DNA of 57,946 nucleotides from the NCBI GenBank assembly GCA_028286835.1, contig JAQBQT010000011.1:71246-129191 (forward strand), written 5' to 3'. Below, piece by piece: positions 14,515 to 44,220 of this stretch. Position 1 is the first letter of the stretch. Every line of letters begins with the position of its first letter. The notes under the pieces were generated by a model. It was given only the letters and a program-made list of their open reading frames with translations. It ran no database searches and was not told where the DNA came from. The DNA comes from Candidatus Parcubacteria bacterium. Its GTDB lineage: Bacteria > Patescibacteriota > Minisyncoccia > Phycocordibacterales > PALSA-1337. The translations under genes were made by a program, and so were the position numbers.

Positions 14515-14520
14515 AGGATG

Positions 14521-15123: not shown

Positions 15124-15124
15124 A

Positions 15125-20336: not shown

Positions 20337-20372
20337 TAAGTGAGCGCCAGAAACTGTTGATAGCGAAAAGTG

Positions 20373-23882: not shown

Positions 23883-24344
23883 ATGAATAAGGTAAAGAAC
23901 CGAAATACTACCCAGAATGTAGTCATAACCATACTAATCACCATACTCTGCGTAGTATTACTACTATATATAGAGCGTGACTTAGTATACGCAAAACTCA
24001 AAGACTGGAAACTTGTTCCTCAGCCTGAACACTTCACAGAGTTGTACTTCAACAACTATGACGATTTGCCCAAGCGCAGCGTCAAAGGCTTCACTGCTGC
24101 GTTCTCGTTCACTATCCATAATATGGAAGGTGCGACGATGACATACCCGTACAAAGTATATTTCGAGTACTCAAGCGGACGAATAACGCCCTTCGTGGAA
24201 GGCTCCATAACATTGGCTGACGGCGAATCCTACGCAACAACAACCACACACGTCTTTGAAACGACGGATTTGCAAGGAAAAGTCATAGTAGCCATCCCCA
24301 CACTCAATCAAGAAATAGACTCCATACTGCCAAATAACAATTAA
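23883..24344 (+). CDS. Membrane-anchored protein, DUF1616-like
   Basis: N-terminal TM, then EHFTELYF...LP...FTIHNMEGATMTYPYKV resembling the DUF1616 C-terminal domain. Confidence 0.55.
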   Translation: MNKVKNRNTTQNVVITILITILCVVLLLYIERDLVYAKLKDWKLVPQPEHFTELYFNNYDDLPKRSVKGFTAAFSFTIHNMEGATMTYPYKVYFEYSSGRITPFVEGSITLADGESYATTTTHVFETTDLQGKVIVAIPTLNQEIDSILPNNN

Positions 24345-24347
24345 ACT

Positions 24348-25130
24348 ATGTCTCATCAAAATACCACTCTAAAAAAGGTCAGCGTACTGATACCCTGCTA
24401 TAACGAAGTGGGTGGTATCGCAAACGTAATAAAGAGTTTCCCTTTCGAAAAGGCGCTCTCTCAGGGGTTTTTATTCGACATCATCGTCATCGACAATAAC
24501 TCGACAGATCAGACTGCGGATATTGCCCGTGCACATGGGGCTACTGTCCTCTTCGAACCTATGAAGGGCAAGGGTAATGCGATGAAACGCGGCTTCTATT
24601 CCATACCGACGGACACGGACTACGTAGTCATGCTAGATGGGGACGATACATATCGTCCCGAAGAGATCCTCCGCCTTATAGAGCCTCTTCATTCAGATTT
24701 CTGCGACGTTGTGATCGGTTCCCGCCTCAGCGGACGCATTATGAATGGTTCCATGAACAACCTCAACCGAGCGGGTAACTGGATCTACTCCCATTTGGTG
24801 CGCTATTTCTATAAGGTGAATGTCACAGACGTTCTCACAGGTTACTTCGCCTGGAAGAAATCTGCTCTCGAAGACCTCAGACCACACCTCTATTCTCAGG
24901 GCTTTGCCATTGAGATGGAGATGGTCACTAAGATGGCAAAATTGAATCAGCAAATCTGTTGCGTGCCTATCAGTTATCACATTCGCGCTGGAAGGACTAA
25001 TTTGAGCCCCGTACGCGATGGCATCCGTATCCTTTGGATGTTCACAAAGAACCTTTATTGGGCTCCCACTATCCCTACAAAGAAATCACTCGAAGAGTCT
25101 AAATTCGTCTCACAATTGCAGCAAGGTTAA
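24348..25130 (+). CDS. GT2 glycosyltransferase (polyprenol-phosphate glycosyltransferase-like)
   Basis: VSVLIPCYNE, VIDNNSTD, GKGNA, MLDGDDTY, VIGSR, DVLTGY, FAIEMEM. Confidence 0.92.
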   Translation: MSHQNTTLKKVSVLIPCYNEVGGIANVIKSFPFEKALSQGFLFDIIVIDNNSTDQTADIARAHGATVLFEPMKGKGNAMKRGFYSIPTDTDYVVMLDGDDTYRPEEILRLIEPLHSDFCDVVIGSRLSGRIMNGSMNNLNRAGNWIYSHLVRYFYKVNVTDVLTGYFAWKKSALEDLRPHLYSQGFAIEMEMVTKMAKLNQQICCVPISYHIRAGRTNLSPVRDGIRILWMFTKNLYWAPTIPTKKSLEESKFVSQLQQG

Positions 25131-25140
25131 CATCGTTCCG

Positions 25141-28100
25141 ATGGAGTCTTTTACAGGAAAAAAAATAGTCATAGTGGCCCATCACTATCCGCCACATATC
25201 ACTGGCGTAGGTTTCGTAGCTCAGAACCATGCCCGCCGTCTCGCAGCACTTGGTCATAAGGTAACAGTCATAACGAGCGACACTGGCCCGATGGAGAAAG
25301 ACGCAGTACAAGACGGGGTGCGAGTCGTTCGAATCAAGGCTTGGAATATCACGGAAGACTGGAATGCGCCCTTCCCTCTTTTTTCGCCGACCCTAGCATT
25401 CACCCTCTCCAAATATATTCGGGATGCAGACATTGTGCATGTGCACGATTCTTTTTATATCAGTTCATTCTTTGCAAGCGTTATAAGCTGGATATACCGC
25501 AAGCCGCTACTCCTTACACAACACGTAGCCATGATTGCCCATCCGAGCAAAATCATCGTTGCGATACAAAAAATAGTATATGCAACGACCGGAAAAATAA
25601 TTTTTTCCTTAAGCAAGCGCATATTTGTTTTCAATAATAGGATCGAGAATTTTCTTTTAGAAAAAGGTGTTTTGCAGGACAAGATAATAAGCCTATTCAA
25701 TGGCGTCGATACGGAGGTCTTTCGCCCTGCCGCCGGCGATGAGAAAAAAAATTTAAGGAAGAAGTTCAATCTTAGCCTCGAGAAGAAGATCGTGCTTTTC
25801 GTGGGAAGATTCGTCCCCAAAAAGGGCTTTGATAAAGTACTTAGACTCGGAAGCAGCGAGTATCAAGTCGCGTGCGTCGGAGGCGAGGAGTCAAAAGAGA
25901 AAATAGAAGGCGATGTGGTGTTCCTCGGCAAAGTCGACCAGAGCAAACTCGCTGAGATATATCGTGCAGCAGACATATTCCTGCTTCCATCCGAAAGCGA
26001 AGGCTTCCCACTCTCCGTACAGGAAGCCATGGCTTCAGGATTGCCGATCATCACCACGGACGATCCTGGCTACGAAAAATACCATTTCGACAGACAGAAC
26101 ATGCATCTCATAGACAATACGGATATCGAATCGATACGAAAAATCGTACTGCAAACATGTAGAGATGAGAAGATTCTTCAGAGGATGTCGACATATTCAG
26201 AGCGATACGCTAAGGAGAACTTCAACTGGGATAAATCTATAGCCAAGCTCGATGGCATATATTCAGAGTTAATTGGTACGAACAGCGGTAAGAAACATAT
26301 AACCGTCGTCTCACCGTATTTCTATCCAAAAATCGGAGGCTTGGAGAATATCGCTTATACTACAGCGCGGAATCTTCACCAAAGCGGCATCTACAGGGTA
26401 AGTATCATCACAAGCAATCACACTGGAAAGGAATATGTGAAAGAGACGATCGACGGCATGATCGTTCATAGATTGCCTATACAGTTCATATTATCGAATA
26501 GCCCGGTCAATCTCACATGGTACTGGAAAATCAAGCGCATTTTCAAGGCGGATCGGCCTGACCTCATTCATGTCCATTCCCCTGTCCCGTATATAGCAGA
26601 CATGGCTGCATATGCAGCCGGAAAGACGCCCGTAGTTATCACATACCACTCGGGCAGCATGCGCAAGAATAAATGGCCTGTAGATATCCTCATCGACCTT
26701 TATGAGAAGGTCTTCCTGGTAGCCCTATTCAAAAAAGTTGTGGCTATCGTCGCATATTCACCAGAATTCATTGAGAAGGAACTGAGGCCATTCAAGGAAA
26801 AAACATTCTATATATCCCCAGGCGTCGATTTGAATAGATTTACACCGACCCCGCTCTCCCAGAATAAGGTCGTCACCTTCGTGGGCCGTATGGAGCACGC
26901 AACCAAATGGAAAGGTGTCGAGACCCTTCTGAAAGCCGTAAGCATTTATGCGAAGAAGGACCCTACCGTCCGGTTGAGGCTTGTCGGCACAGGCGACGCC
27001 ATAGAGCACTACAAGAAGATGGCTTTTGACCTGAATATCGGCTCAAATGTGGTCTGCACAGGACCCAAATTGGGTGGTGCTTTGACAGAAGAATACCAAA
27101 GGGCCGATGTCGTAGTGCTTCCTTCCACTTCCAATGCAGAATCATTTGGAATGGTCTTGGTCGAAGCAATGGCTTCAGGTCGACCAATCATTGGTTCGAA
27201 TATCGGCGGCATCCCACAGCTTATAGATGACGGCAAAAACGGCCTGCTTGTAGCCCCAGGCGACGAAGCAGCCCTCGAACAAGCAATTGAAAAAGTGCTT
27301 ACAGATAAGAAGCTGGCATCTACATTCGCTGAGCGATCTCTGGTTAAAGCCCGAGAGTTCAATTGGGCGATCCAAGTGGAGAAGTACCAGAATCTATTTA
27401 AAGAAATTCTCAAGGTAAAGAGCAAGAAAGTCGCGCTCGTGACTGACGCTCTGTATCCATACAACAAAGGAGGCAAGGAAAAGAGAATATACGACATCAG
27501 CACTCGACTAGCTGCACGCGGATACGACGTGACTGTGTATTCGATGAAGTGGTGGAACGGTCCTAAGAAGATCACCGAGAACGGAGTCAAACTATATGGC
27601 ATAAGCCCTTATTTCCCTCTCTACGAAGGCAAGCGCCGTTCTATAAAAGAAGGCGTGCTTTTCTCCCTGCATGCGCTCAAGCTGCTTTGGGAAGACTTCG
27701 ACATCATCGAAGTCGACCATATTCCCCATCTCGTGCTTTTTACAGTCAAGATCGTATGCGTTATTAAAAGAAAGAAGATGATCGCAACATGGCACGAAGT
27801 ATGGGGCAAAACGTACTGGAAGAAATATCTCGGAGCAGCAGGGCTTATAGGATACTGGATAGAAAAAGTAAGTTCGAAGCTTCCTGACATCATCATCTCT
27901 GTTTCTGAGCATACCACTGGAGCATTAAAGAAAACTCTGAGTAGAGAAAAAAACGTTGTTACAATCTCAAATGGGCTGGACGTCATCGGGACACGGACGG
28001 GTCTCACGAAGAGCAATGGTGCGGATATCATATTCGCAGGCCGATTATTGGCTCACAAGAACATCGACATACTTTTGCACGCAATCGCTATCCTAAAAGC

Positions 28101-28539
28101 AAAAAACATCGATGTGACTGCGAATATTATTGGAGAGGGTCCGGAACGAACCAACCTCGAAAATCTGGCGCTGCAGCTGGACCTCACCGATAGAGTCACA
28201 TTCAAAGACTTCTTCATGGATCATAAGGAACTGTATTCGATGATGCAGGCATCAAGGGTCTTCGTACTCCCTTCGACCCGTGAAGGCTTTAGCATCGTAG
28301 CCCTTGAAGCGAACGCATGCGGGCTGCCAGTGGTAGCAATCGATCATCCAGAAAATGCAGCCAAGAACCTCATTACTGATGGCGGGAATGGTATTCTAAC
28401 AACGCTCGACGAAAGCGCTCTAGCCGAATCCATCCTCAAAGCTTTCAAAATGAAGGAAAATGAGCAAAACTATGACAGCTACATAAAGGAGTATGATTGG
28501 GACAGTCTGATCTCGAAAGTAATCACCGTATATGAATAA
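25141..28539 (+). CDS. Triple GT4 (GT-B) glycosyltransferase fusion
   Basis: Three tandem modules, each with an N-terminal YP..GG loop and an E-x7-E signature (EGFPLSVQE, ESFGMVLVE, EGFSIVALE). Start set to ATG 25141. Confidence 0.9.
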   Translation: MESFTGKKIVIVAHHYPPHITGVGFVAQNHARRLAALGHKVTVITSDTGPMEKDAVQDGVRVVRIKAWNITEDWNAPFPLFSPTLAFTLSKYIRDADIVHVHDSFYISSFFASVISWIYRKPLLLTQHVAMIAHPSKIIVAIQKIVYATTGKIIFSLSKRIFVFNNRIENFLLEKGVLQDKIISLFNGVDTEVFRPAAGDEKKNLRKKFNLSLEKKIVLFVGRFVPKKGFDKVLRLGSSEYQVACVGGEESKEKIEGDVVFLGKVDQSKLAEIYRAADIFLLPSESEGFPLSVQEAMASGLPIITTDDPGYEKYHFDRQNMHLIDNTDIESIRKIVLQTCRDEKILQRMSTYSERYAKENFNWDKSIAKLDGIYSELIGTNSGKKHITVVSPYFYPKIGGLENIAYTTARNLHQSGIYRVSIITSNHTGKEYVKETIDGMIVHRLPIQFILSNSPVNLTWYWKIKRIFKADRPDLIHVHSPVPYIADMAAYAAGKTPVVITYHSGSMRKNKWPVDILIDLYEKVFLVALFKKVVAIVAYSPEFIEKELRPFKEKTFYISPGVDLNRFTPTPLSQNKVVTFVGRMEHATKWKGVETLLKAVSIYAKKDPTVRLRLVGTGDAIEHYKKMAFDLNIGSNVVCTGPKLGGALTEEYQRADVVVLPSTSNAESFGMVLVEAMASGRPIIGSNIGGIPQLIDDGKNGLLVAPGDEAALEQAIEKVLTDKKLASTFAERSLVKAREFNWAIQVEKYQNLFKEILKVKSKKVALVTDALYPYNKGGKEKRIYDISTRLAARGYDVTVYSMKWWNGPKKITENGVKLYGISPYFPLYEGKRRSIKEGVLFSLHALKLLWEDFDIIEVDHIPHLVLFTVKIVCVIKRKKMIATWHEVWGKTYWKKYLGAAGLIGYWIEKVSSKLPDIIISVSEHTTGALKKTLSREKNVVTISNGLDVIGTRTGLTKSNGADIIFAGRLLAHKNIDILLHAIAILKAKNIDVTANIIGEGPERTNLENLALQLDLTDRVTFKDFFMDHKELYSMMQASRVFVLPSTREGFSIVALEANACGLPVVAIDHPENAAKNLITDGGNGILTTLDESALAESILKAFKMKENEQNYDSYIKEYDWDSLISKVITVYE

Positions 28540-29698
28540 CCCCACTAACAACAAAAGGGCTCTTCCTCACATTGTCATCGCAACTGCCTATTTCTATCCA
28601 AAGATCGGAGGCGTTGAGAATTATTCCTACATGCTCGCTAAGAAGCTGCAAGAAAGCGGTGAATACACTGTAAGCATCATCACGAGCGACTACGACAATA
28701 CAAAAAACGCAAAACTGATTATCGATGGTATGACTGTATATCGCCTACCTGTGGGCTTCAGACTCTCCAACACTCCGATGAACCTGAGATGGTACTGGGA
28801 AATAAAGAAGATCCTTAAACAAGAGAAGCCCGATATACTTCATGTGCACTCCCCCGTCCCGTACCTTCCAGACATGGCTGCATGGGCAGGTAAAAATGTA
28901 CCCATGGTATTCACATACCATTCGGGCAGCATGAAAAAAGGCAAATGGCCTATCGATGCGCTAATACAGATCTACGAGAAAGTCTTCCTTGCAAAGATGT
29001 TCCAGCGAGCAAGGGCTGTTATCGCAATCTCACAAGAGTTCGTAAAAAATACATTTCCTCAGTACAAGAATAAAACCTTTTTCATTCCGACAGGAGTAGA
29101 TTTAGGCAGGTTTAAGAAGATGCCCTTACCCGCATCACAGCGAGTCACATACGTTGGTCGCATTGAACACAGCTCGAGCTGGAAAGGCATTGATTCATTG
29201 CTCCAAGCCATGACTATCGTCGTATCCCAATGCCCCGAGGCTACGCTTGAGCTTATTGGCGGCGGCGATGCACTCCCCCACTATAAGGAACGTGCGGCGC
29301 AACTCGGCATCGCCGAATCAGTCGTATTTTCTGGACCAAAACGAGGGGCCGAACTGGTCGAAGCATACAGCAGGTCCAACGTAGTCGTTTTATCTTCGAT
29401 ATCAGATTCGGAAGCTTTCAGCGTTACGCTCGTTGAAGCTATGGCATGCGGTAGGCCGATCGTCGGAACCAATATCGGAGGAACTCCTCAGCTCATAGAC
29501 CACGAGAAGAACGGCCTGCTTGTGGCTCCTAACAAGCCAGAAGAGCTTGCGGCTGCAATTATCAGAGTCCTCAACGATACAACTCTTGCACAAAACCTCG
29601 CGGCATCAGGAGCTGAGAGATCCATAGGTTTCTCATGGGATATCCAAGCGAAAAAATACTCCGACATTTTCCAGTCGATGTTAACCAAAAACATATGA
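28532..29698 (+). CDS. GT4 glycosyltransferase
   Basis: YFYPKIGGVEN, EAFSVTLVEAMACG. Close paralog of module 2 of the triple fusion. Confidence 0.92.
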   Translation: MNNPTNNKRALPHIVIATAYFYPKIGGVENYSYMLAKKLQESGEYTVSIITSDYDNTKNAKLIIDGMTVYRLPVGFRLSNTPMNLRWYWEIKKILKQEKPDILHVHSPVPYLPDMAAWAGKNVPMVFTYHSGSMKKGKWPIDALIQIYEKVFLAKMFQRARAVIAISQEFVKNTFPQYKNKTFFIPTGVDLGRFKKMPLPASQRVTYVGRIEHSSSWKGIDSLLQAMTIVVSQCPEATLELIGGGDALPHYKERAAQLGIAESVVFSGPKRGAELVEAYSRSNVVVLSSISDSEAFSVTLVEAMACGRPIVGTNIGGTPQLIDHEKNGLLVAPNKPEELAAAIIRVLNDTTLAQNLAASGAERSIGFSWDIQAKKYSDIFQSMLTKNI

Positions 29699-32031
29699 GG
29701 ATCACCTTTTTAGCATCGGGCAGCATACGCAGCAACTTTAGCTATCGCATACTTGCTTTAGCACGCTCTTTGAGAGCGCACGGAAACAGCGCATCGATCA
29801 TCGCCCCTTCTGCCGATAAATATAACAATTTCTCCCCTGAGAAAATAAATGAGATCGATGGCGTAAAGATACTTCAGCCATTTCAGCTCAAGACCAAGCG
29901 CCTGGAGATCAATCTCATCCCTTATCTCTTCGGTGCTTTTAAAGCGCTTCTTAAGGAAAAACCTGAAGTCATATACATTTATAAACCGACCCCGATCTCT
30001 GCTATCGGTCTTTTCGGCAAAATGGTCTTGGGGGCCGAGACGGTGGTGGATTTCGATGATCTTGGAAGCGAAGTTATGAGGATCGAAGGTCATCCATCCT
30101 ATCAACGGAAGCTGGTTGAATGGTCTGAGCGGATTTGCGCCCATTACGCAGATAGGCTCGTCGTGACATCAAGCCTGCTTTTTGATCTATATACAAAAAA
30201 ATATCCGAAGAAGCCCATCATCATTATCCCGAATGGAGTGGAGAAGGATTGGTTGAATAAGCCGCTCGTGGTTACAGATGCGGCTCGGATCGTTTTTATG
30301 GGATCTCTGAACAGGAAGACTATCTTGGGCCCGCTATTTGAAGTGCTGCCAAAAGTTATCGCCAAATATCCTTCGCTCAAAGTGCTTGTCATCGGCGATG
30401 GCACATACCTATCTTATTTCAAAGATCTCGCAGCAAAAGACGGCCTCACGAACAATGTATCTTTTACAGGATGGCTAGCTCTTGATGCCGCCCGATCCCA
30501 GCTGCATAGCGGCGACATCGGATACAACTATATGCCCGATGAGATCACTGTCAAAGCCGCGAGCAACATGAAGATGCCTCAATATATGTCTCGCGGCGTC
30601 GTCCCATTCGTGAGCGATGTGGGAGACCTTTCTCGCACAATCGGCAACGGTAGTGCAGGCTACATCTGCCCTGCTGGAGATGCAGGATCGCTTTTCAACG
30701 TCCTTGTTTCTGCCATCCAAGACCCGAACCGATCTGATAAGGTCAAAAATGCTATTCATCTCGCATCCACAGTGCTCAGCTGGGATACTCTTGCCCAGAA
30801 TTTCCAGGCATGGGTGCGTCCTTCTGGAAATACCCATCCAAAGATATATGTGGTCGCAACAGCGATACCCGGAAACTTTGGTGGCGGGGAGATGCGGAAC
30901 TTCAATCTTATCAAACAGCTCATTAAGCAGCTCAAGCCTAATCTCCACATCTTCTGTATCTCACAAAACAATATCCCCGATGAAATCAAAAAGTTCGAAT
31001 CTCAGACTACAGCCAAGATACACATTGCTCCAAGCGCTAAACGCACATGGGGCTCAACTCTCCGCGCGATCGTATTAAAGCGTGTCCCTCCCTATATGGA
31101 TGACTTCCAATCCAGCAACTTGGGCAGCATGTTCCGTATGGCATGCGAGGAATCGCTTCCCGATATCGTACATATAGAGCAGATACATGCCTACTATTGC
31201 GTGCGTCCGCACATTCCTTGGCTAAAAAAGATGGGCGTGCGCATCATATTCGATTGCCATAATGTGGAATTCCGAGGTTTCAAAGATTCATTGGAAATAT
31301 TCTCGCTTTCAAAGAGGCTGATAGGGACATATCTGACTCCTCACATGAAGAAAATTGAGATTGAGGCTACAAAATATTCAGACGCAATCCTCGCCTGCTC
31401 CGAGATCGATGCCGCTTTCTTTAGGGCATATAATAAAAACGTTCATATCATTCCGAATGGAGTGGACTGCTCAGAATTCGTATCTGACAAAAAACCAGAT
31501 AAGCCCATACTTATATTCATGGGATCTGCAGCATACCCCCCTAATGCTGATGCGGCTCAATTCTATCTAACATCTATCCATCCGATAGTAAAGAGATCTG
31601 TGCCGAATGTGCAGCTTCTGGCCATTGGCATCCAGAAATCATGGCTCGAAGAGAATAAGCTGGCCGATCCTTCTGTCGACGGTCTTGGATTTGTCGACGA
31701 TGTTAGGGTATACCTTAGTAAGGCAGCAATTGGCATCTCACCCATCCGTTATGGGTCAGGAACACGCATTAAGATCATGACGTACATGGCCACTGGCTTG
31801 CCTGTCATTTCCACCAGCAAGGGTGCGGAGGGGGTCGACTATGAGAACGGCAAGAACATCATACTCGCGGATGAAGCAGAGACGTTCGCTGCAGGCGTCA
31901 TCAAACTACTCAACGACAGAGTATTACGCGACAAGATCGCAAATAATGGGTATTCTTTCATAAGGGATCATTATGACTGGGATGTCATAGGCAAAAATCT
32001 GAAATCAATATATCTCCATGGCATTTCATAG
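29695..32031 (+). CDS. Double GT4 glycosyltransferase fusion
   Basis: Two GT-B modules (DFDD...IIPNGV...FMGSL; FDCHNVE...IIPNGVD...FMGS...PNADA...GSGTRIKI). ATGA overlap with the upstream gene. Confidence 0.88.
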   Translation: MRITFLASGSIRSNFSYRILALARSLRAHGNSASIIAPSADKYNNFSPEKINEIDGVKILQPFQLKTKRLEINLIPYLFGAFKALLKEKPEVIYIYKPTPISAIGLFGKMVLGAETVVDFDDLGSEVMRIEGHPSYQRKLVEWSERICAHYADRLVVTSSLLFDLYTKKYPKKPIIIIPNGVEKDWLNKPLVVTDAARIVFMGSLNRKTILGPLFEVLPKVIAKYPSLKVLVIGDGTYLSYFKDLAAKDGLTNNVSFTGWLALDAARSQLHSGDIGYNYMPDEITVKAASNMKMPQYMSRGVVPFVSDVGDLSRTIGNGSAGYICPAGDAGSLFNVLVSAIQDPNRSDKVKNAIHLASTVLSWDTLAQNFQAWVRPSGNTHPKIYVVATAIPGNFGGGEMRNFNLIKQLIKQLKPNLHIFCISQNNIPDEIKKFESQTTAKIHIAPSAKRTWGSTLRAIVLKRVPPYMDDFQSSNLGSMFRMACEESLPDIVHIEQIHAYYCVRPHIPWLKKMGVRIIFDCHNVEFRGFKDSLEIFSLSKRLIGTYLTPHMKKIEIEATKYSDAILACSEIDAAFFRAYNKNVHIIPNGVDCSEFVSDKKPDKPILIFMGSAAYPPNADAAQFYLTSIHPIVKRSVPNVQLLAIGIQKSWLEENKLADPSVDGLGFVDDVRVYLSKAAIGISPIRYGSGTRIKIMTYMATGLPVISTSKGAEGVDYENGKNIILADEAETFAAGVIKLLNDRVLRDKIANNGYSFIRDHYDWDVIGKNLKSIYLHGIS

Positions 32032-34393: not shown

Positions 34394-34399
34394 TCTTCC

Positions 34400-35686: not shown

Positions 35687-36567
35687 ATACACTAAAGGAA
35701 TCTTTAAGAAAAATCACTCCGCACTTCATCCTCGATATCGTTGGAAGATACGATTTTATCAAAAAAACCGAATTATTTTCAGAGAGGCCCTTTTATAGCA
35801 TGTGTAAGCTCTCACGCTGGATGTTCTTCGTTTGGACCAAAAGAGATGTTTCCTTCCGAACTCCCGATGGAACGAGATTCGTTTCGATGCCATATAATTT
35901 GAGCTCGTTTTTTGTTTGCTTTACAAATTACCGCGATCCGGCTATCCAGAAATTCATGACAACGCATCTAAAAACAGATGCTGTATATGTCGACGCTGGT
36001 GCCAATATAGGGACGTACAGTGTGAGGGCAGGACAATACCTCAAGCACGGCCAAGTCATTTCTTTTGAGGCACACCCGCTGATATTCTCTTATTTTGAAA
36101 GGAATATCAAACTAAACGGATTGCGTAATGTCAGATTATGCAATGTCGCGCTGGGCGCAGAGAATGGAGAGACCGAAATGGCGTATTCCAGTAAGAATGC
36201 CGGCGAGACACATATCGCGACGCCTGGCGAGCAGAAGATTAGCGTTCCTCTGCGGACGCTCGATAGTGCCCTTATGGAAATGAGCATTCGTGAGATCGAT
36301 TATTTGAAGATTGATGTCGAAGGGTTTGAGCTTCCTCTCCTGAAGGGTTCTAAGGAGATTGTGCGGAACAGCAAAAAGATAATCATCCAGACGGAATTGA
36401 ACAACAAGCATGCGCAAAGATACAATAATTCTGTAAAGGATCTAACGGACCTACTTATGAGCTGGGGGTTGGCACCGCACTCAATTGACAATAACGGACA
36501 ATCCCATACTATGGAGCCAAAGGAGCTTGAGGAGGATTGTGACGTGCTTTGGTGGAGAGAACAATAA
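35683..36567 (+). CDS. FkbM-family SAM-dependent methyltransferase
   Basis: VDAGANIG, FEAHP, NVALG, LKIDVEGFE. Start set to ATG 35683. Confidence 0.92.
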   Translation: MNTLKESLRKITPHFILDIVGRYDFIKKTELFSERPFYSMCKLSRWMFFVWTKRDVSFRTPDGTRFVSMPYNLSSFFVCFTNYRDPAIQKFMTTHLKTDAVYVDAGANIGTYSVRAGQYLKHGQVISFEAHPLIFSYFERNIKLNGLRNVRLCNVALGAENGETEMAYSSKNAGETHIATPGEQKISVPLRTLDSALMEMSIREIDYLKIDVEGFELPLLKGSKEIVRNSKKIIIQTELNNKHAQRYNNSVKDLTDLLMSWGLAPHSIDNNGQSHTMEPKELEEDCDVLWWREQ

Positions 36568-36576
36568 TCGATCAAG

Positions 36577-37839
36577 ATGAATACCACAGCAATAAAAAAA
36601 GAGGTCCATGTTAGATTTTCAGGAGGTAAAGTGAAACCTTTGATCCTCCTGATGAGTCTAAGTATTTTTGCTTTTTTTATTTTGGTCGGTTTCATCCGCT
36701 CGATTTCTCAAAACGAACCGCCTGCAGTTGTAACCCCGGCCCTCACCTCTACTACGACAACGGCGGCATCGACAACTTTCCCTAGTAAACCTAATCCCCC
36801 AGTAGTCACCCGCCCTACAACACCCGTAACCATAACGCCAAGCGGCCTTGCGGGGATCGGGCATGCAGTAGGAATCTCTGCCGGAGGATCTCTGTCGCGA
36901 ATGAGTCTGTCGGATATGAATGCGTATCTCGACCAAATGTCAGCCCTCGGCGTCACGTGGGTCAGGTTCGATGTCGAGTGGGGCATCGTTCAATATAATT
37001 CACCCAACAATTTCGACTGGAGCAATTTCGATGACCTTGTAAGTGCGATCAACTCCCACCATATGAATGGCCTAGGTATCATCCTTTTCACCCCAGCATG
37101 GGCTCGAAATCCATCCTGTACAGGTGGCGCAAAGTGCCCTCCAAACGATCCTCAACAGTTCGCAACATTCGCTGCTTCCCTCGCAAACCGATACAAAGAC
37201 AAAGGTATCCACGATTGGGAGATCTGGAACGAACCAAATAACTATGATTTTTGGGCGACAAAAACAGACTGCGTCGCATATACGAATCTTCTTAAGGTCA
37301 CATATCCTGCTATAAAGGCTGTTGACCCGCTCGCAGTCATCGTGAGCGGCGGTCTAGCTCCCGAAAATACCGACAACCACAACATATCTCAGATGGACTT
37401 CCTCAGGTGCATCTATGCCAATGGCGGGAAAGAGTATTTCGATGTGTTCGGTGACCACTCATACACATTTCCCTCCCTACCAAGCGATAATAAAACAAAT
37501 ATCTGGGCACAAATGTCTGTCACGTCTCCAAGCCTGCGCAGCATCATGATCGCGAACGGCGATGGCGCAAAAAAGACATGGATCACAGAATTTGGAGTTC
37601 CCACGAATGGCCCTAACTCAAACTGGTATGTAAGCGAAGCTCGACAAGCGCAAATGGTCGTAAGCTCGATGAATCTATACAAGACCTATGACTGGGCAGG
37701 GCCTATATTCTGGTACACGTTGAGAGATAATGGCACGTCAACGAATACAAATGAGAATTTCTTTGGGCTTATACGAGCGGACGGAAGCCTTAAACCTGCT
37801 TATACAACGCTCAAAGATATACTCTCTCACGGAATCTAA
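36577..37839 (+). CDS. Membrane-anchored clan GH-A glycoside hydrolase (GH5/GH39-like)
   Basis: N-terminal TM and P/T linker, WVRFD, TPAWA, WEIWNEPN (acid/base Glu), WITEFG (nucleophile Glu), FGLIR. Confidence 0.85.
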   Translation: MNTTAIKKEVHVRFSGGKVKPLILLMSLSIFAFFILVGFIRSISQNEPPAVVTPALTSTTTTAASTTFPSKPNPPVVTRPTTPVTITPSGLAGIGHAVGISAGGSLSRMSLSDMNAYLDQMSALGVTWVRFDVEWGIVQYNSPNNFDWSNFDDLVSAINSHHMNGLGIILFTPAWARNPSCTGGAKCPPNDPQQFATFAASLANRYKDKGIHDWEIWNEPNNYDFWATKTDCVAYTNLLKVTYPAIKAVDPLAVIVSGGLAPENTDNHNISQMDFLRCIYANGGKEYFDVFGDHSYTFPSLPSDNKTNIWAQMSVTSPSLRSIMIANGDGAKKTWITEFGVPTNGPNSNWYVSEARQAQMVVSSMNLYKTYDWAGPIFWYTLRDNGTSTNTNENFFGLIRADGSLKPAYTTLKDILSHGI

Positions 37840-37898
37840 TCACACCACGATAACCTTCTTCCACGCAAGGACAATATAGGGTATGCTGGATACTATAC

Positions 37899-40319
37899 AT
37901 GATGAAACGTATGGCCATTATGGCCATTTATATTTTATGTAGTACGTGTTCGCTGTCTCCTCTCACAAAAAAAGCCGAAGCCTCCACATTCTCTATCGGC
38001 GAACGTGTCTACATAGTAAATACCCTGAGGGTGCATAAGATACCCTCCAATTCCACCGACTCGATAGTCGGCGCGCATCCTGCTGGCAGCTTTGGAACGA
38101 TCATAAGTGGTCCCAAAGTAACATCTGCCTATACCTGGTGGCAGGTAGACTACGATTCAGGCGCAGACGGTTGGAGCGCATCGAATTGGCTCTTTCGTGC
38201 CCCCATCCAAACTATCGCTAAAAAAAATAGCATTGTCTCAAGCACGAATCTTTCAGGCACTATAGGAAATCAAACAGGGAACACTGCTGTGCAAGTCGGA
38301 AATCAAATACAGACCACAGCTAATCTGAAGGTACGTTCTGCTCCATCAGCTAACGGAGCACCCATTGGCAAGCATACTGTCGGGTCCAAAGGGACAGTTA
38401 CAGCAGGGCCAGTCTCAGCGAACGGTTATAAATGGTGGCACATCGAATACAGAGATGGACTATCAGGATGGAGCGCACAAGATTGGCTCGCACCCGCCGC
38501 AAGCTCTGCGCCTGTAATTCCGATCTCCACAGCCGACTCAGCGATGCCATCGACAGCAAATGATACTCCATCATATTCCGGAGAAGGCGGGGGTGGATCT
38601 GCAACACGTGCACCTGTCATACCGACACCACCAGTATCTACAAATACCGGAGGCGGTGGAGGCGGATCAGTACTACCGGCACCTATCATACCGACACCAC
38701 CAGTATCTACAAATACCGGAGGCGGTGGAGGCGGGAATCCATCTATCTCCGCACCGACTCCGACGACCTACACGTTAAATGCATCAAGCGACGTTGGCGG
38801 AACTATTTCTCCAACCGGATCTACAAAGATAAATAGCGGAGCTTCTCAGACATACCTCATCACCGCAGCTAGCGGCAAGAAGATTTCAACTGTCAGCATC
38901 GATGGAAAAGCTCTGTCAGGAACACCTTCAAGCTACGTCTTCTCAAATGTGACCGCAAACCATACCATACATGCTACGTTCGCCGTTTCTACAACAACAC
39001 CACCTTTACAGCTGACAGCGCCGACCATCACATCTTTCAAGGCGGGCACCTCAACGATAACGACTGGCAAATCTACTAGCTTGACCTGGATTGTTACTGG
39101 AACCCCGACGCCATCGATCAGCATCAATCAGGGCATTGGTACCATCATTGGAACAAGCTTGGTTCTGATCTCCCCTACCACTACCAAGGTATATACCCTG
39201 ACCGCATCGAATACGTCTGGCACAAAAACGGCTCAAGTCACCGTCATCGCCATCGCACCCAGCACCAGCACGCCAACCGCCAACGATCAGCCCCCAGCAA
39301 CACCTGCCACTGCCGGATCCAGTGCGGCAGCGCAGATCGGGCACACGGCCGGCATATCGGCGGGATGGCCCCTGTCACAGATGACGCCCGCAGCAATGAA
39401 TGCCTATCTCGATCGGCTTGTCGAACTCAAGGCGACTTGGGTACGGTTCGATATTGATTGGGACCTCATTCAAAAGGATTCGCAGAACGCATTCGACTGG
39501 AGCAAGATAGACAGCTTGGTTGCAGCTATAAACAGCCACCATCTGAGCGGTCTTGGCATACTACAATTCACGCCGGCCTGGGCTCGTAATTCTGCTTGTG
39601 CGAGCGGCAATAAATGTCCGCCGAACAAGTTCGACCAATTCGCGACGTTTGCCGCAGCCGCCGCCACCCGATACAAGGACAAAGGCATTCACACCTGGGA
39701 GATATGGAACGAGCCAAACAATGCCATCTTCTGGGCGCCACGTACTGATTGCGCTGCATATACGAGCCTGCTCAAAATCACGTACACGGCGATCAAAACT
39801 GCTGACCCAGGGGCCGTAGTCTTGAGCGGCGGCTTAGCTCCAGAACCCACTGATACCTACAACACTTCCCAAGCAGATTTCCTTAAGTGTATCTATACGA
39901 ATGGAGGCAAAGAGTATTTCGACGTCTTGGCTGACCACTCATATACATTCCCTGCTCTTCCTTCTGATAACAATACGAACATGTGGGCTCAAATGGCGGC
40001 GACAAACCCGAGCCTACGCAGCATCATGAGCACCAACGGGGATTCACATAAAAAAATGTGGATTACTGAATTCGGCACCCCTACGAATGGTCCTGATTCG
40101 AATACATTTGTTGATGAGGCTCGGCAATCTCTTATGGTCACAAGCGCCATGACTCTCTATAAGACCTATGATTGGGCCGGGCCGATATTCTGGTACACAT
40201 TGAATGACCTTGGTATATCAACGAGCACTATCGAGAACTTCTTCGGATTAATCCGAGCAGATGGAAGCCTAAAGCCAGCATTCACGACTCTCAAAAATAT
40301 CATAAACGCTGGCCTATGA
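37899..40319 (+). CDS. Secreted multidomain glycoside hydrolase: 2x SH3b-like, P/G/T linker, beta-sandwich modules, GH-A catalytic domain
   Basis: Signal peptide (KAEA/S), two ...GP...GY.WW.V.Y..G..GW modules, WEIWNEPN and WITEFG. Catalytic domain is a paralog of the preceding gene. Confidence 0.8.
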   Translation: MMKRMAIMAIYILCSTCSLSPLTKKAEASTFSIGERVYIVNTLRVHKIPSNSTDSIVGAHPAGSFGTIISGPKVTSAYTWWQVDYDSGADGWSASNWLFRAPIQTIAKKNSIVSSTNLSGTIGNQTGNTAVQVGNQIQTTANLKVRSAPSANGAPIGKHTVGSKGTVTAGPVSANGYKWWHIEYRDGLSGWSAQDWLAPAASSAPVIPISTADSAMPSTANDTPSYSGEGGGGSATRAPVIPTPPVSTNTGGGGGGSVLPAPIIPTPPVSTNTGGGGGGNPSISAPTPTTYTLNASSDVGGTISPTGSTKINSGASQTYLITAASGKKISTVSIDGKALSGTPSSYVFSNVTANHTIHATFAVSTTTPPLQLTAPTITSFKAGTSTITTGKSTSLTWIVTGTPTPSISINQGIGTIIGTSLVLISPTTTKVYTLTASNTSGTKTAQVTVIAIAPSTSTPTANDQPPATPATAGSSAAAQIGHTAGISAGWPLSQMTPAAMNAYLDRLVELKATWVRFDIDWDLIQKDSQNAFDWSKIDSLVAAINSHHLSGLGILQFTPAWARNSACASGNKCPPNKFDQFATFAAAAATRYKDKGIHTWEIWNEPNNAIFWAPRTDCAAYTSLLKITYTAIKTADPGAVVLSGGLAPEPTDTYNTSQADFLKCIYTNGGKEYFDVLADHSYTFPALPSDNNTNMWAQMAATNPSLRSIMSTNGDSHKKMWITEFGTPTNGPDSNTFVDEARQSLMVTSAMTLYKTYDWAGPIFWYTLNDLGISTSTIENFFGLIRADGSLKPAFTTLKNIINAGL
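38611..38734 (+). repeat. Intragenic 55-nt direct repeat (period 69 nt)
   Basis: 38611-38665 and 38680-38734 differ at one base and encode P(V/I)IPTPPVSTNTGGGGG twice. Confidence 0.9.
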
Positions 40320-42664
40320 TCTCATCTAAGGGAATAGCTAAAATATCGGTTGCGTGGATGATAGTCACAACCTGTGTTGTTTTCATCCCCAGCATTTCTG
40401 CGTGGATCGCAACCCCTTTCGTCTTGGTTGGCATTATATTCGTGCCCGGTCTATTGCTTGCCGTCAATCTGGGGATCCATCGAAAAAGTATCCTCGAATA
40501 TATCCCCTACTCATTAGGACTCGGGCTCGGATTCGTGATTATAGGCGGATTGGCTTTGAACTGGGTATTACCGCACGCAGGCGTATCCGCTCCTCTTGCG
40601 CGGGTGCCGCTTATTGTATTCTTCAATTGCTCTGTACTGGTATTAGCTGTAATAGCTTACAAATTTAAAACCGTGGAGACAGAGTTTGAAATTGGTTGGC
40701 CTGACGTAACAAGTGTGTTATTCGGGACAGTGCCCCTGCTCTTCGTAGTAGCGAACGTAGTCGGAGCAGAAAGATTGAACAACGGACAGAACGGAATAAT
40801 GACACTCACGACGTTGGCATGCACCACAATCTACTTCTTAATTCTATCCTGTCAGAAAAAACAGCCCAAAGAGTGGGTGTACATCTGGTCTCTATACTGT
40901 ACCTCCCTCTCGCTTTTACTTATGTACTCATTAAGAAGCTCCCATATATTCGGCTGGGATATCAACCAGGAATACCAAGTATTTCAGGCAACACTCCAAC
41001 ATCTTGTGTGGAAAGTATCCTATTATCCTAATTTCGACTACAACGCCTGTCTGAGCATCACTATATTGCCAACGATTCTGAAGGTACTAACGAACATATC
41101 AAGCGAATATGTATTTAAAATCACATATCAGCTCATTTTTGCTGCTGTTCCAGCCCTCGTATACTTACTCTGCAAACGGTACCTCACTCAAAATCTAGCA
41201 TTCGTAGCGGCATTTCTATTACTGTCACAGAGATGGTTTTACGAACAAATGCCTGCTTTGATACGGCAAGAGATCGCATTCATATTCTATATATTCATAC
41301 TCATCGCGCTCTTTGATACAGATTTGTCTAAACGAACCCGCTATACCCTATTATCTATATTCACTACTGCTCTGGTGCTTTCTCATTACTCAACGACATA
41401 TATTTGGATCGCCGTGATGTTTGGAGGACTCGCTATGTCTTATCCTGCGCGCTTTTTCATCAAATCATTGCGCAAACAAAAACCAGTCATCAGCCCGATC
41501 ATACTAATCTTCACAATCATCATCCTGGCGGTATGGGAGATACCGGTAACGCATACCGGGAGTGCCCTTTCTAAATTTGCCACAAATCAAAATCCTTTAG
41601 GTGCAACAAAGCCCGCAGCAGATGTACCACCACAGACAGTCCAGCATCCGGAGAATACAAGTGATGGTATAAATATCGACACCAAAACTATAGCCCACGA
41701 TGCTCCTGCAGCCCAGGCGGATACTATGGCCCACAAACTCATACAGCAGCTTTCTTTTGCGACCACAAACCCAAACAGTCAAACTAATCTGGAGATAGCG
41801 TACCAAAAAATTATTAATGCTTATGGTAACCCTACCAAATACGATATATACAGCGATGGATCAAACTCACACTATATGCCACGTGTTGTAAATAATACGG
41901 CTCACATGTCGCCCCAAATAAATCCATCCTTATCGACAATCATCCGCTTCGCCGAAACAACTTCTAAAATAGTCCTCATAGATATGTTCCCTATTGCTGG
42001 GATAATTGTCCTTTGTTTGCGCCTTCGAAAACGAGAGTCCAGCACCACATACGACCTCATTCTCATAAACATGAGTGCACTCGGACTTATAACACTTACC
42101 CTTCTCGTCCCCTATCTTCAGGACTACTACAATCTAACCCGGCTCTACCTGCAAATGTTCATTTTAATCTGCATGCTTTCTATCGTTGGGGGGATGGCAC
42201 TACTCAAATCGCTTCCACGGTATCAAATCGAAATTCTTGCATGCATTGTGGCGATTATGTTCTGTTCCCAAAGCGGATTATTTGAACAATTTACGGGGGG
42301 AGAAAAGCGACTCACACTCAATTCTCTTCCAGGGAATCTGGATATCTACTATACATATGACAGCGATATTGCCGGCGCCAAATGGTTGGCTAAAAATAGA
42401 GACCCTATCGCCCCAATCCAATCTGACATTATATCCTCATTGCGCCTCCAGTCATTTGGAGATATAGCAGCGGGTAATTTTGCAATACTTCCCCAAACTC
42501 TTCGTCGAAATAGTTATGTGTATCTGACAAATCTAAACATTAATTCAGGAAAAAACTTCTACCAGTACGAAAATAATCTTTTGATATTCAACTATCCCTT
42601 AGAATTCCTCGACTCGCACAAGAATCTCATCTATAGCGCCGGGGGATCAAGAATTTACAGGTAA
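40316..42664 (+). CDS. DUF2206-like polytopic membrane protein 2
   Basis: IFGWDINQEY, ACLSITILP, RQEIAFIF, SHYSTTY, C-terminal IYSAGGSRIYR. Distant paralog of 32018..34393. Confidence 0.7.
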   Translation: MISSKGIAKISVAWMIVTTCVVFIPSISAWIATPFVLVGIIFVPGLLLAVNLGIHRKSILEYIPYSLGLGLGFVIIGGLALNWVLPHAGVSAPLARVPLIVFFNCSVLVLAVIAYKFKTVETEFEIGWPDVTSVLFGTVPLLFVVANVVGAERLNNGQNGIMTLTTLACTTIYFLILSCQKKQPKEWVYIWSLYCTSLSLLLMYSLRSSHIFGWDINQEYQVFQATLQHLVWKVSYYPNFDYNACLSITILPTILKVLTNISSEYVFKITYQLIFAAVPALVYLLCKRYLTQNLAFVAAFLLLSQRWFYEQMPALIRQEIAFIFYIFILIALFDTDLSKRTRYTLLSIFTTALVLSHYSTTYIWIAVMFGGLAMSYPARFFIKSLRKQKPVISPIILIFTIIILAVWEIPVTHTGSALSKFATNQNPLGATKPAADVPPQTVQHPENTSDGINIDTKTIAHDAPAAQADTMAHKLIQQLSFATTNPNSQTNLEIAYQKIINAYGNPTKYDIYSDGSNSHYMPRVVNNTAHMSPQINPSLSTIIRFAETTSKIVLIDMFPIAGIIVLCLRLRKRESSTTYDLILINMSALGLITLTLLVPYLQDYYNLTRLYLQMFILICMLSIVGGMALLKSLPRYQIEILACIVAIMFCSQSGLFEQFTGGEKRLTLNSLPGNLDIYYTYDSDIAGAKWLAKNRDPIAPIQSDIISSLRLQSFGDIAAGNFAILPQTLRRNSYVYLTNLNINSGKNFYQYENNLLIFNYPLEFLDSHKNLIYSAGGSRIYR

Positions 42665-43930
42665 CCCTGGGGTCGGACGATTCCTGTATAGGAATATGTA
42701 CACGAAGGCGATTATTGCAGCCACAAGATTGCCTACCAGCCACGCTATAGCGATCCAGGATAGCCCCTTATTAGCCCAAAACACCGCCAAGAAGGCCACA
42801 ACCCCTGCATATACTACATTCGTTATGACCAGAGCATACATCTGATGCCTGATCCTCAATAAGACGCTGCCAATATTGAATGCTGCGACAGCTGGGGCCG
42901 CAAGCGCCAAGAGGGCTATGACCTCTGAACCTCCAGAGCTATATGACTTACCAAAAAATCTTAAAATGTCAGGGCCAAAAAACGCGAGGATGAGACCTGC
43001 AGGTAACATCAAGAACACCATTATTTTTAGCGAACCCTTGATGAGATCTCGTATAGATTTCTCGCTGTACGATCCTTCGGCGAATAGAGACTGAGAGACC
43101 GACGCTGAAACTGTGTAAAGTAAATTGATGATCATGAAGGCCAGATAGAAGTACCCTGCCGCATCAGCCCCCAAGCGGCCGATGATGATAATCGGCAATA
43201 TCGAAGTCGGCACTATACTAAAAAGATTTGCGAGATAATTAGTAAATGAATAATGCAATACTTTCTGGAGTATTTCCTTATCGATTCTGATCTCTGGACG
43301 ATACCCGAACTTGATATACAGCAAAGTGAAGCTCACGAGCATTCCGATCGAGACGGCGAGGCCCGAAGCCGCGAATATGCCGTAGGCTCCGACCCCAATA
43401 AAAACAAAAGGCAGTAGAAGCTTAGCGACGCTAATGATGATACCGTCAGTGAGAAAGTTATACTGAGCTGCTCTATATGCGATGAATATGCTATCGCTCA
43501 AAGAGTTCGCTGCTGCAAAAGTGACCATGATGACGAAACCTATGGAGTACCATACGTTCTCCCGGATGATGCCTAAAGATGGCGTTATATACGGAATTAG
43601 GATGATATAAGCTATCGAGATCAGTGCAGCAGCCCCCATTACTATGATCGATCCAGTATTGATCTCCTTATTCCTGTTCTGGGAGCTAGGCAAGAACCTG
43701 ACAAACGTACTATTGAAACCGAAAAGGCTTACGAATGAGATGAGTGTCATCGCCGAGATAAGCGTCGTGCTCACCCCGATCTGGCTTGGGGTAAAAATAT
43801 GAGTGCAAACCAGCCAAAAGAAAAAGCCGAAGCCGCCCATAGTACCAGTCGTCAGCATAAGATAAATAGAATTCCGGAAAAGATTGTCTTCCAAAAAGTG
43901 TTTCCAGAGAAGATTGAAAGGCTTAGTCAT
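42647..43930 (-). CDS. Oligosaccharide flippase (Wzx/MOP superfamily)
   Basis: FRNSIYLM, FGFNSTFVRFLP, GADAAGYFYLA, SLFAEGS, 12 or more TM segments. Start set to ATG 43930. Confidence 0.88.
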   Translation of the reverse strand: MTKPFNLLWKHFLEDNLFRNSIYLMLTTGTMGGFGFFFWLVCTHIFTPSQIGVSTTLISAMTLISFVSLFGFNSTFVRFLPSSQNRNKEINTGSIIVMGAAALISIAYIILIPYITPSLGIIRENVWYSIGFVIMVTFAAANSLSDSIFIAYRAAQYNFLTDGIIISVAKLLLPFVFIGVGAYGIFAASGLAVSIGMLVSFTLLYIKFGYRPEIRIDKEILQKVLHYSFTNYLANLFSIVPTSILPIIIIGRLGADAAGYFYLAFMIINLLYTVSASVSQSLFAEGSYSEKSIRDLIKGSLKIMVFLMLPAGLILAFFGPDILRFFGKSYSSGGSEVIALLALAAPAVAAFNIGSVLLRIRHQMYALVITNVVYAGVVAFLAVFWANKGLSWIAIAWLVGNLVAAIIAFVYIFLYRNRPTPGLPVNS

Positions 43931-43999
43931 TCGAGTATATATTACATTACGTTTTCTTTTATACCTCGTCAACCTGATGTCTTCATGTATAATTGCAGC

Positions 44000-44218
44000 A
44001 TGAAAGCACTTAAGGCCCTCACCTTTACACTATTCTTTTTCGGTTTTGCTGGATGGTTTTATATTGCAGAAAATGCTGCGTTTCATCCCAATACTCTTGT
44101 ATTGCCGCTCACACATCTCGCTTCATGGCCTCGCGAAGATACATTCGGGATCATTTGCTTTGGACTCTCCTTCTTAAGCCTTTTCATCTACATGCTTATA
44201 AAAGATAGGAATAAATGA
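44000..44218 (+). CDS. Small two-TM membrane protein (72 aa)
   Basis: MKALKALTFTLFFFGFAGWFYIA...HLASWPREDTFGIICFGLSF. TATAAT lies 6 nt before the ATG. Confidence 0.7.
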   Translation: MKALKALTFTLFFFGFAGWFYIAENAAFHPNTLVLPLTHLASWPREDTFGIICFGLSFLSLFIYMLIKDRNK

Positions 44219-44220
44219 TG

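Follow-up and report, generated by a model that had tools for sequence, protein, structure and literature searches.

How might a surface glycan be assembled by a gene island that carries several glycosyltransferases and a flippase and in which no Wzy, Wzz/Wzc, WaaL or WbaP can be recognised? The question is raised by an unbroken run of thirteen genes, about 20 kb long, at positions 23883-44218 of a 57,946-nucleotide (nt) stretch of contig JAQBQT010000011.1 from a Candidatus Parcubacteria bacterium. The whole stretch is referred to as the window, and all coordinates are positions in it. Two of the genes, DUF2206-A and DUF2206-B, code for large membrane proteins of the Pfam family DUF2206 (PF09971). 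We consider it likely, with a probability of roughly 60%, that the island is a conserved cassette that assembles a surface heteroglycan on polyprenyl-phosphate, with DUF2206 performing the step at the outer face of the membrane. A preliminary description of this DNA had drawn up an inventory of the island, and every element of it, including seven modules of glycosyltransferase family 4 (GT4), was present where it had been placed.

Species-representative genomes were scanned for DUF2206 relatives, which gave 202 loci; the figures on related loci are from the best 80. These loci were from Patescibacteria (Paceibacterota, Saccharimonadia, Kaiserbacteria and Adlerbacteria), Actinomycetota and Chloroflexota. 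Six-frame open reading frames (ORFs) of the 80 loci were searched with the island proteins, and 43 of the loci have complete flanks of ±10 kb. GT4 genes were found in all 43 full-flank loci, a glycosyltransferase of family 2 (GT2) in 42, a Wzx flippase in 42, the short membrane protein d16 in 35, a PslG-like hydrolase in 34 and the small membrane protein o139 in 19; that the island genes would occur together elsewhere had been predicted, and they did. The shared order was d16, GT2, two to four GT4 genes, DUF2206, sometimes an extra GT4, then Wzx, hydrolase and o139, with d16 directly beside GT2 in 41 of the 54 loci having both. Recurrent neighbours were tailoring enzymes, namely polysaccharide deacetylases, a second GT2, pyruvyl transferases and epimerases. 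That one gene set should turn up, with its order preserved, in dozens of genomes of three phyla goes far beyond what chance would produce.

Of the 80 loci, a single one came from a cultured organism, Pseudonocardia asaccharolytica DSM 44247 (L078; NZ_AUII01000008.1, 134942-157044). Its cassette reads GT2, GT4, DUF2206, GT4, o139, Wzx, GT4 and hydrolase, and no d16 was detected, so that some lineages seem able to do without it. Cassettes of the type found in the candidate phyla radiation (CPR) were also seen in metagenome-assembled genomes labelled Gammaproteobacteria or Flavobacteriaceae (L006, L011, L015, L044, L048 and L056). The core DUF2206 of L006 had the same scores and tree position as that of the Saccharibacteria-labelled L007, and the taxonomic labels of all six look unreliable.

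DUF2206-A (32018-34393, + strand; 791 amino acids (aa)) and DUF2206-B (40316-42664, + strand; 782 aa) matched PF09971 at 68.8 and 76.7 bits, against a gathering threshold of 35.6 bits, with the match confined to the C-terminal half of each protein; members of the archaeal branch scored 154-215 bits. An AlphaFold2 model of DUF2206-A, built from an alignment of 53 relatives, reached a pLDDT of 90.3 and a pTM of 0.92. It contained about 17 transmembrane (TM) helices, a soluble insert at residues ~469-540 and a C-terminal alpha/beta domain at residues ~664-791. When the model was compared with the Protein Data Bank (PDB) using Foldseek, the top 16 matches were all glycosyltransferases of the GT-C fold (AftA at 7e-5, human and yeast STT3, PglB, DPY19 and ArnT), with probabilities of 0.75-1.00. 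Transporters matched at probability <0.1 only, and the 50 matches listed included no WaaL- or SEDS-type protein, so that the GT-C assignment proposed in the preliminary description gained support. The family profile found nothing below E = 0.4 among PDB sequences. PMT_2 was matched by 29 of the 53 relatives at E <= 0.01 (best 2.6e-7), and residues 222-462 of DUF2206-A itself gave sub-threshold matches to PMT_2 (2.9e-4) and STT3 (0.022). At the level of the fold, the predicted structure identifies DUF2206 as a GT-C-fold glycosyltransferase. No functional literature was found for DUF2206 (PF09971) in the library searched. An exact search for DUF2206-A among public contigs gave no entry.

Residue conservation was compared across 99 sequences (78 core bacterial, 4 B-type and 17 archaeal). 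A G-x-D-x-x-x-E outer loop had been noticed earlier in both island paralogs, and it is real: the motif reads G225-H-D227-I-L-L-E231 in A and G-W-D-I-N-Q-E in B, and its Asp and Glu were invariant throughout. Twelve residues were invariant in 99/99 (D227, E231, W244, S258, R328, Q329, H369, Y370, W436, P605, R615 and W700), and all of them are retained in B, which is 29% identical to A over the full length. Applied to the sequence, the positive-inside rule predicts that the D227/E231 loop faces outward, and this loop can reasonably be predicted to be the catalytic one. D227, E231, K279, R328, Q329, H369, Y370 and R615 are candidate active-site residues.

The island has two DUF2206 genes, and it had been suggested that the twins act as polymerase and ligase. 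As a general mechanism this did not hold. A real second copy was present in 3 of the 80 loci, B orthologues occurred only in L003, L004 and L006, and the DUF2206 of single-copy loci was always nearer to A than to B; the 80 loci were picked by similarity to paralog A, which biases this A-versus-B comparison. The phylogeny called for in the preliminary description was also run. In a rough neighbour-joining tree without support values, the B-types formed a separate deep branch beside all A-types, the archaeal proteins were the outgroup to both bacterial types, and DUF2206-A of the window grouped with Parcubacteria loci. DUF2206-B, as judged from these comparisons, is a lineage-specific second GT-C found only in the closest relatives of the window. 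An apparent pair in a Chloroflexia locus (L065, 5754-8063) consists of adjacent ORFs of 321 and 448 aa and is probably one gene split by a frameshift or an assembly error. Natural fusions of GT2 or GT4 to DUF2206, of about 1,100-1,170 aa, were also seen (P0097, P0075, P0066, P0067 and P0109).

The branch nearest to the Pfam DUF2206 model is that of methanogens. In Methanobacterium paludis, Methanohalophilus and one further genome, DUF2206 follows a run of GT4 genes near a Polysacc_synt flippase, with sugar-nucleotide genes around it. Archaeal DUF2206 thus occupies the usual Wzy slot, between the GT4 genes and Wzx. No DUF1616 or PslG-like gene was found within 10 kb of these three archaeal DUF2206 genes. 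Of the archaeal glycosylation link noted earlier for DUF2206 and DUF1616, the DUF2206 half is borne out by the methanogen clusters and the DUF1616 half was not borne out in those examined.

The island could in principle be a chance or recently transferred mosaic without functional unity, in which DUF2206 is a non-enzymatic transporter or scaffold. GC content was 0.44-0.47 inside the island (0.52 in the 38-40 kb bin) and 0.55-0.57 in the flanks, a deficit of about 10 points. The island lies between recG (21444-23723) on the left and tRNA-Ile(TAT) (44220-44294, - strand) followed by ftsH on the right, and the tRNA gene starts two bases past the end of the last island gene. Most bacteria decode AUA with a lysidine-modified CAT tRNA, which makes a tRNA-Ile with a UAU anticodon unusual. 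The GC drop and the abutting tRNA hint at a more recent arrival in the present genome, and profile searches gave no solved relative of DUF2206 by sequence, which would also suit a mosaic. Against it stand the same gene set and order in three phyla, the GT-C fold with transporters at probability <0.1 only, and polar and charged residues that are invariant across both domains of life. At the left border no direct repeat of the neighbouring tRNA-Ile was found, and there was no integrase. Elsewhere, the GC content of the cassette tracks that of its host from 0.29 to 0.72, so the cassette is usually an old resident. A mosaic without functional unity is effectively refuted. A mobile island was likewise rejected as a general explanation, since there are no att-like repeats, there is no integrase and cassette GC tracks host GC in other genomes; a recent transfer into the present genome alone is possible.

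Gene packing also points to a single unit. Eleven + strand genes are spaced by -14 to +10 nt, with a single exception of 59 nt, and therefore form one operon, of which d16 is the first gene. The Wzx gene is convergent toward the operon end and the small o139 gene is divergent from Wzx. All intergenic gaps in the island are <=69 bases, leaving no space for a further gene. A scan of the island for promoters and terminators gave counts at chance level.

What would start the glycan? The GT2 (24348-25130, + strand; 260 aa, no TM helix, PF00535 at E=6e-24) is the proposed initiator. Its best NCBIfam match is AglJ (TIGR04182; 2.8e-58), and its nearest solved relatives are dolichol-phosphate mannose synthase (DPMS) of P. 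furiosus (5mlz; 1.3e-13), followed by ArnC. It keeps the D-x-D of the DPMS motif DADLQ, as DGDDT. AglJ, DPMS and ArnC each load one sugar onto polyprenyl monophosphate, and by this resemblance the GT2 appears to be of the polyprenyl-phosphate sugar synthase type and a sensible initiator. The island has no phosphoglycosyl transferase, and across the 80 loci none recurs within ~3 kb of the cassette, which makes the GT2 the sensible choice from the genomic side as well. The earlier suggestion that it primes a lipid carrier is consistent with both observations.

Extension would fall to the seven GT4 modules. Three are in one protein (25141-28539, + strand; three stretches each matching PF00534, PF13692 and PF13439), one in the next (28532-29698, + strand; PF00534 at 3.9e-35, PF13439 at 3.5e-28), two in a third (29695-32031, + strand; two stretches with PF13692 and PF00534) and the seventh in a gene downstream of DUF2206-A (34400-35686, + strand; PF00534 at 1.2e-29). 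The true start of the triple GT4 is probably 25141 rather than 25018, judging from where its first module lies and where the gene before it stops; the double GT4 probably starts at 29695, with a 4-nt overlap with the preceding stop. Across the loci, two to seven GT4 modules always lie between GT2 and the GT-C gene, and an oligosaccharide is therefore the likely cargo. The next gene (35683-36567, + strand) encodes an FkbM-family S-adenosylmethionine methyltransferase (TIGR01444 at 2.2e-33, PF05050 at 6.5e-19). Its homologue was found in 1 of the 80 related loci, and it is a strain-specific tailoring enzyme. Capping by the methyltransferase, which had been put forward as a feature of the system, is at most a strain-specific decoration.

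The apparent lack of classical components was confirmed. Wzy, Wzz/Wzc, WaaL and WbaP/WecA had no Pfam or NCBIfam match in any island ORF. No phosphoglycosyl transferase, Wzy, Wzz or LCP protein was found among the ~46 window ORFs scanned against Pfam, and none was recurrent within ~3 kb of the cassette in the 80 loci. The combination of phosphoglycosyl transferase, Wzy and Wzz or another polysaccharide co-polymerase (PCP) that marks a classical Wzx/Wzy locus is thus missing. The absence of an outer-membrane export step fits the hosts, because all are single-membrane lineages.

The flippase (42647-43930, - strand) is a Wzx protein of the MOP superfamily. It matched PF01943 (Polysacc_synt) at 38.2 bits (cut-off 28.2) and PF13440 at 30.9 (cut-off 23), and its profile found no solved relative among PDB sequences. 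Two hydrolases of glycoside hydrolase (GH) clan GH-A follow the methyltransferase. Hydrolase 1 (GH39/GH5; 36577-37839, + strand), a putative endoglycanase, has PslG as its best PDB match, with E = 3.8e-24 over 300 residues, and also matched PF00150 at 3.3e-10. Both catalytic Glu motifs are kept, WNEPN being the same as in PslG and ITEFG corresponding to STEWG. It carries an N-terminal TM helix anchor and a Thr/Pro-rich linker. Hydrolase 2 (37899-40319, + strand; PF08239 SH3_3 and PF00150) has a signal peptide, SH3 domain(s), Gly/Pro/Thr-rich linkers and Ig-like repeats, and is probably wall-associated. The two are 67% identical over 358 residues of the catalytic domain, and from their sequence features both should act outside the cell.

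In the mechanism that we propose, the GT2 would load the first sugar onto polyprenyl monophosphate at the inner face of the membrane. The seven GT4 modules would extend it from nucleotide sugars to an oligosaccharide of up to about eight residues, which FkbM may O-methylate in the present strain, and the flippase, judged by its family, would carry the lipid-linked oligosaccharide to the outer face. There, DUF2206-A would take the glycan off the lipid phosphate by means of the Asp227/Glu231 loop and Arg, Lys, His and Tyr residues; repeat units would be joined into a polymer, or the glycan would be handed to its final acceptor. The two outward-facing hydrolases would trim or release the polymer. 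More speculatively, d16 and o139 might be accessory membrane subunits, and DUF2206-B, in the present lineage only, might perform a second extracytoplasmic transfer, for example ligation or the addition of a branch. The model is the most economical one, as it gives every conserved part a role and requires none that is absent.

Within this model, a polymerase role is preferred for DUF2206 because the cassette is accompanied by a presumably endo-acting PslG-like hydrolase, deacetylases and pyruvyl transferases and offers no other polymerase candidate; we would put that role at slightly short of even odds. A wider proposal can be formulated, in which DUF2206 would be a cross-domain GT-C family (methanogens, Patescibacteria, Actinomycetota and Chloroflexota) that replaces Wzy as the repeat-unit polymerase acting on polyprenyl-monophosphate oligosaccharides started by a GT2 of the AglJ/DPMS type, and would form, with d16 and o139, a major unrecognised surface-polysaccharide route of single-membrane bacteria including CPR. 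In this full form it is doubtful.

Several observations weigh against our reading of the island. The TM-scores of the DUF2206-A model against solved GT-C structures were moderate (0.33-0.45), and the D227/E231 motif follows the seventh predicted TM helix, whereas in canonical GT-C enzymes the motif follows the first. The closest folds (STT3, AftA, DPY19 and ArnT) are single-transfer enzymes, not polymerases. AglJ remains the best-matching model for the GT2, at a score of 197.6 bits that lies below the equivalog cut-off of 325; the GT2 is therefore not an AglJ orthologue. A minority of cassettes lack d16, the hydrolase or o139, so these are not strictly required. The sequence was found in one soil-metagenome DNA run only and in no RNA data. 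The GT4 product could be primed by a phosphoglycosyl transferase whose gene lies elsewhere in the genome, in the way that wecA serves many O-antigen clusters, and GacK shows that a Wzx-type flippase is able to serve a monosaccharide carrier (PMC10821137).

The last two points would suit an arrangement of two systems, in which the GT2, flippase and DUF2206 add a single sugar outside the cell and the GT4 proteins build a separate polyprenyl-diphosphate glycan primed elsewhere. Housekeeping priming enzymes often lie outside glycan clusters, and o139, with two TM helices (four in Actinomycetota), could speculatively be a small flippase. Pairing of a polyprenyl-phosphate GT2 with a GT-C enzyme is also the hallmark of single-sugar decoration systems (PMC11127046, PMC10821137). 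However, the GT4 product would then have neither exporter nor polymerase, since nearly all cassettes have a single flippase and lack an ABC transporter, a synthase and Wzy. GT4 genes were present in every full-flank locus, directly between GT2 and DUF2206, and GT4-DUF2206 fusion proteins exist. In Lactococcus, the product of a GT2 of the same type is demonstrably elongated by cytoplasmic glycosyltransferases (PMC10821137). We regard two separate systems as quite improbable.

DUF2206 might instead be an oligosaccharyltransferase that transfers the glycan en bloc to a protein (S-layer, pilin or other) or to a wall polymer, in the manner of AglB/PglB or of WpsJ in Lactococcus, with no polymerisation. 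This would agree with the single-transfer activity of STT3/PglB, AftA, DPY19 and ArnT, with the similarity of the initiating GT2 to AglJ of archaeal N-glycosylation (PMC3871713), and with one DUF2206 member (P0069) that matches STT3 at 37 bits (cut-off 24.5), the sole such case in 53 relatives. The window also has, 7-21 kb upstream, a complete type IV pilus locus that includes several pilin genes, but this locus was not a recurrent neighbour among the 80 loci. The presumably endo-acting hydrolase in 34 of the 43 full-flank loci and the recurrent deacetylases and pyruvyl transferases are typical of polysaccharide rather than protein-glycosylation pathways, and the methanogen DUF2206 clusters are organised like Wzx/Wzy polysaccharide loci. 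Archaea, moreover, already possess AglB for protein N-glycosylation. Transfer en bloc is unlikely on this evidence but a serious rival, and assembly of a heteroglycan with an outer-face step by DUF2206 remains our preferred account.

The closest known system in logic is the pellicle polysaccharide (PSP) pathway of Lactococcus lactis/cremoris (WpsA/WpsB, WpsC-F, WpsG, WpsH/I and WpsJ), for which WpsA/WpsB synthesis of GlcNAc-P-C55 and elongation on the monophosphate have been shown in vitro (PMC10821137). Both have a DPMS-like GT2 without TM helices beside a small membrane protein, a start on polyprenyl monophosphate (predicted for the cassette), extension by cytoplasmic glycosyltransferases, Wzx-type export and GT-C-fold enzymes outside. 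Neither pathway has a phosphoglycosyl transferase or a classical Wzy, and both belong to monoderm hosts. All five component types of a PSP-type system were present in the island, a match of architecture only, compared by description. The two GT-C paralogs of the window mirror the polymerase-plus-ligase pair of the PSP model, and DUF2206-B could, on that analogy, perform a second extracytoplasmic step; this is speculation. The component families appear to differ: the cassette GT-C is DUF2206, with ~17 TM helices including an N-terminal extension, and the small partners, d16 with one TM helix and a beta-sandwich and o139 with two TM helices, do not resemble WpsB/GacJ, which have three. The cassette also has PslG-like hydrolases, whereas PSP as described in PMC10821137 has none; most cassettes have one GT-C, and no rhamnan-type acceptor pathway is linked to them.

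N-glycosylation in Haloferax volcanii, whose components also include AglD, AglR and AglS, is similar too. There, AglJ, AglG, AglI and AglE assemble the glycan on a single dolichol phosphate, from which it is transferred by AglB, a GT-C enzyme (PMC3871713). Shared features are a GT2 closest to AglJ, a polyprenyl-monophosphate oligosaccharide (predicted for the cassette), GT-C transfer outside, a Wzx-like flippase (AglR and Agl15 are of the same type) and a tailoring methyltransferase; the DUF2206 and DUF1616 families were first defined in archaea. In contrast, the cassette GT-C is not AglB/STT3 (1 of 53 relatives reaches the STT3 model), its GT2 falls below the AglJ equivalog cut-off, the hosts are bacterial and no acceptor protein was identified. 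Its hydrolases and deacetylases point to a polysaccharide over a protein N-glycan.

Wzx/Wzy systems such as Pseudomonas Psl resemble the cassette in several glycosyltransferases, repeat-unit assembly, Wzx, a polytopic enzyme in the polymerase slot and a cluster-encoded PslG-type endoglycanase (PMC6813494, PMC11912335). The cassette differs in having no WbaP/WecA initiator, recognisable Wzy, Wzz/PCP or outer-membrane exporter. Its initiation is probably on the monophosphate, and its polymerase candidate is an STT3/AftA-like GT-C protein with a C-terminal soluble domain. The three- and four-component systems GtrA/B/C, ArnC/ArnT, CsbB/GtcA/YfhO and GacI/J/K/L share a polyprenyl-phosphate GT2, a flippase and a GT-C enzyme, some with a small membrane activator of the GT2 (PMC11127046, PMC10821137). 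These systems move one sugar, whereas the cassette always has two to seven GT4 modules. The preliminary description had spoken of an uncharacterised route. This is accurate for the DUF2206, d16 and o139 families and not for the logic, which has precedents in Lactococcus PSP and Haloferax Agl.

The two small membrane proteins were characterised further. The product of d16 (23883-24344, + strand; 153 aa, single-pass) had been named DUF1616-like. It scored 20.2 bits against DUF1616 (PF07760), below the cut-off of 31.6 and over profile positions 149-273 of 307 only, so the DUF1616 label fell short of its threshold while DUF2206 passed its own. Relatives of d16 scored 17-32 bits, with close relatives reaching 31.9, and d16 seems best regarded as a short family of its own that has the beta-sandwich half in common with DUF1616. 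Its AlphaFold2 model (pLDDT 94.5) has a TM helix at residues 7-41 and a seven-strand sandwich of the fibronectin type III (FnIII)/Ig-like type; Foldseek matches were FnIII domains of GH3 enzymes, ApaG and RbmA. The motifs PExFTELYF and FxFTIHNxE were invariant in 33 homologues. The family comprised 1,995 representative clusters at E <= 0.001, mostly standalone proteins of ~150 aa. Among its relatives (P0267-P0272 and P0143-P0147), some are tandem duplications of ~280-290 aa with two sandwich domains, and others have an extra C-terminal segment with the motif YGGWYW...MVWLG...QDIWS. In the literature DUF1616 appears as a Haloferax glycoprotein only: AglB N-glycosylates this protein on a peptide similar to the d16 motif, which by analogy suggests that the d16 sandwich faces outward.

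A fusion protein raised a possible link between the two families. The DUF2206 part of P0097 begins with a membrane region that matched the N-terminal TM half of DUF1616 at 27.8 bits, a sub-threshold score that hints at a membrane module common to both. Archaeal DUF1616 might then be 'split', its two halves corresponding to the TM module at the DUF2206 N-terminus and to the beta domain of d16. We keep this as a weak lead: besides the P0097 score, one of the 53 members gave E = 0.0026, the N-termini of the DUF2206 proteins of the window did not match DUF1616, and longer d16 relatives had no such TM module.

The o139 gene (44000-44218, + strand; 72 aa, 2 TM) is a real conserved gene inside the ORF 43799-44218, with its start probably at 44000. 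Homologues were found in 30 of the 80 loci and are spread from CPR to Actinomycetota, where the protein is tandemly duplicated (2 TM to 4 TM). Its loop carries the motif NAxxHPxTLxxPLTHLxxWPREDTFG. It matched no Pfam family, and no functional literature was found for d16 or o139.

Elsewhere in the window, the type IV pilus locus (2325-17009, - strand) includes at least six pilin-like genes with N-methylation motifs, a prepilin peptidase (4698-5510), PilC, a PilT-like ATPase, PilB, two unannotated genes (14521-15814) and PilM. Among the pilin genes, 6128-8524 (- strand) encodes a 798-aa protein with a DPMS-like GT2 (DADLE motif), a large polytopic domain and a C-terminal soluble domain. Its sequence suggests that it may combine a lipid-sugar synthase and a transferase in one self-contained protein, which could conceivably serve to glycosylate pilins. 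It was rejected as a DUF2206 relative (hhalign probability 0.3%, no Pfam match). A tmRNA gene (50286-50651, - strand; 94.7 bits) and tRNA-Ser(GCT) (20372-20459, - strand) were also located. Housekeeping genes of the flanks encode NAD-dependent DNA ligase, a class I tRNA synthetase of the Tyr/Trp type, endonuclease V, IF3, a beta-CASP RNase, NDK, methionine aminopeptidase and adenylate kinase.

Patescibacteria (CPR) live attached to other cells, and surface glycans are likely to be central to their biology. The cassette provides a concrete conserved gene set for one such surface glycan, and its cultured carrier, Pseudonocardia asaccharolytica DSM 44247, is available for genetics. DUF2206 now has a fold, candidate catalytic residues and a link to methanogen glycan clusters. 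If DUF2206 polymerises monophosphate-linked units, the 'missing Wzy' slot would be filled in many Gram-positive-type and archaeal clusters, and the Lactococcus PSP paradigm would be extended to at least three more phyla.

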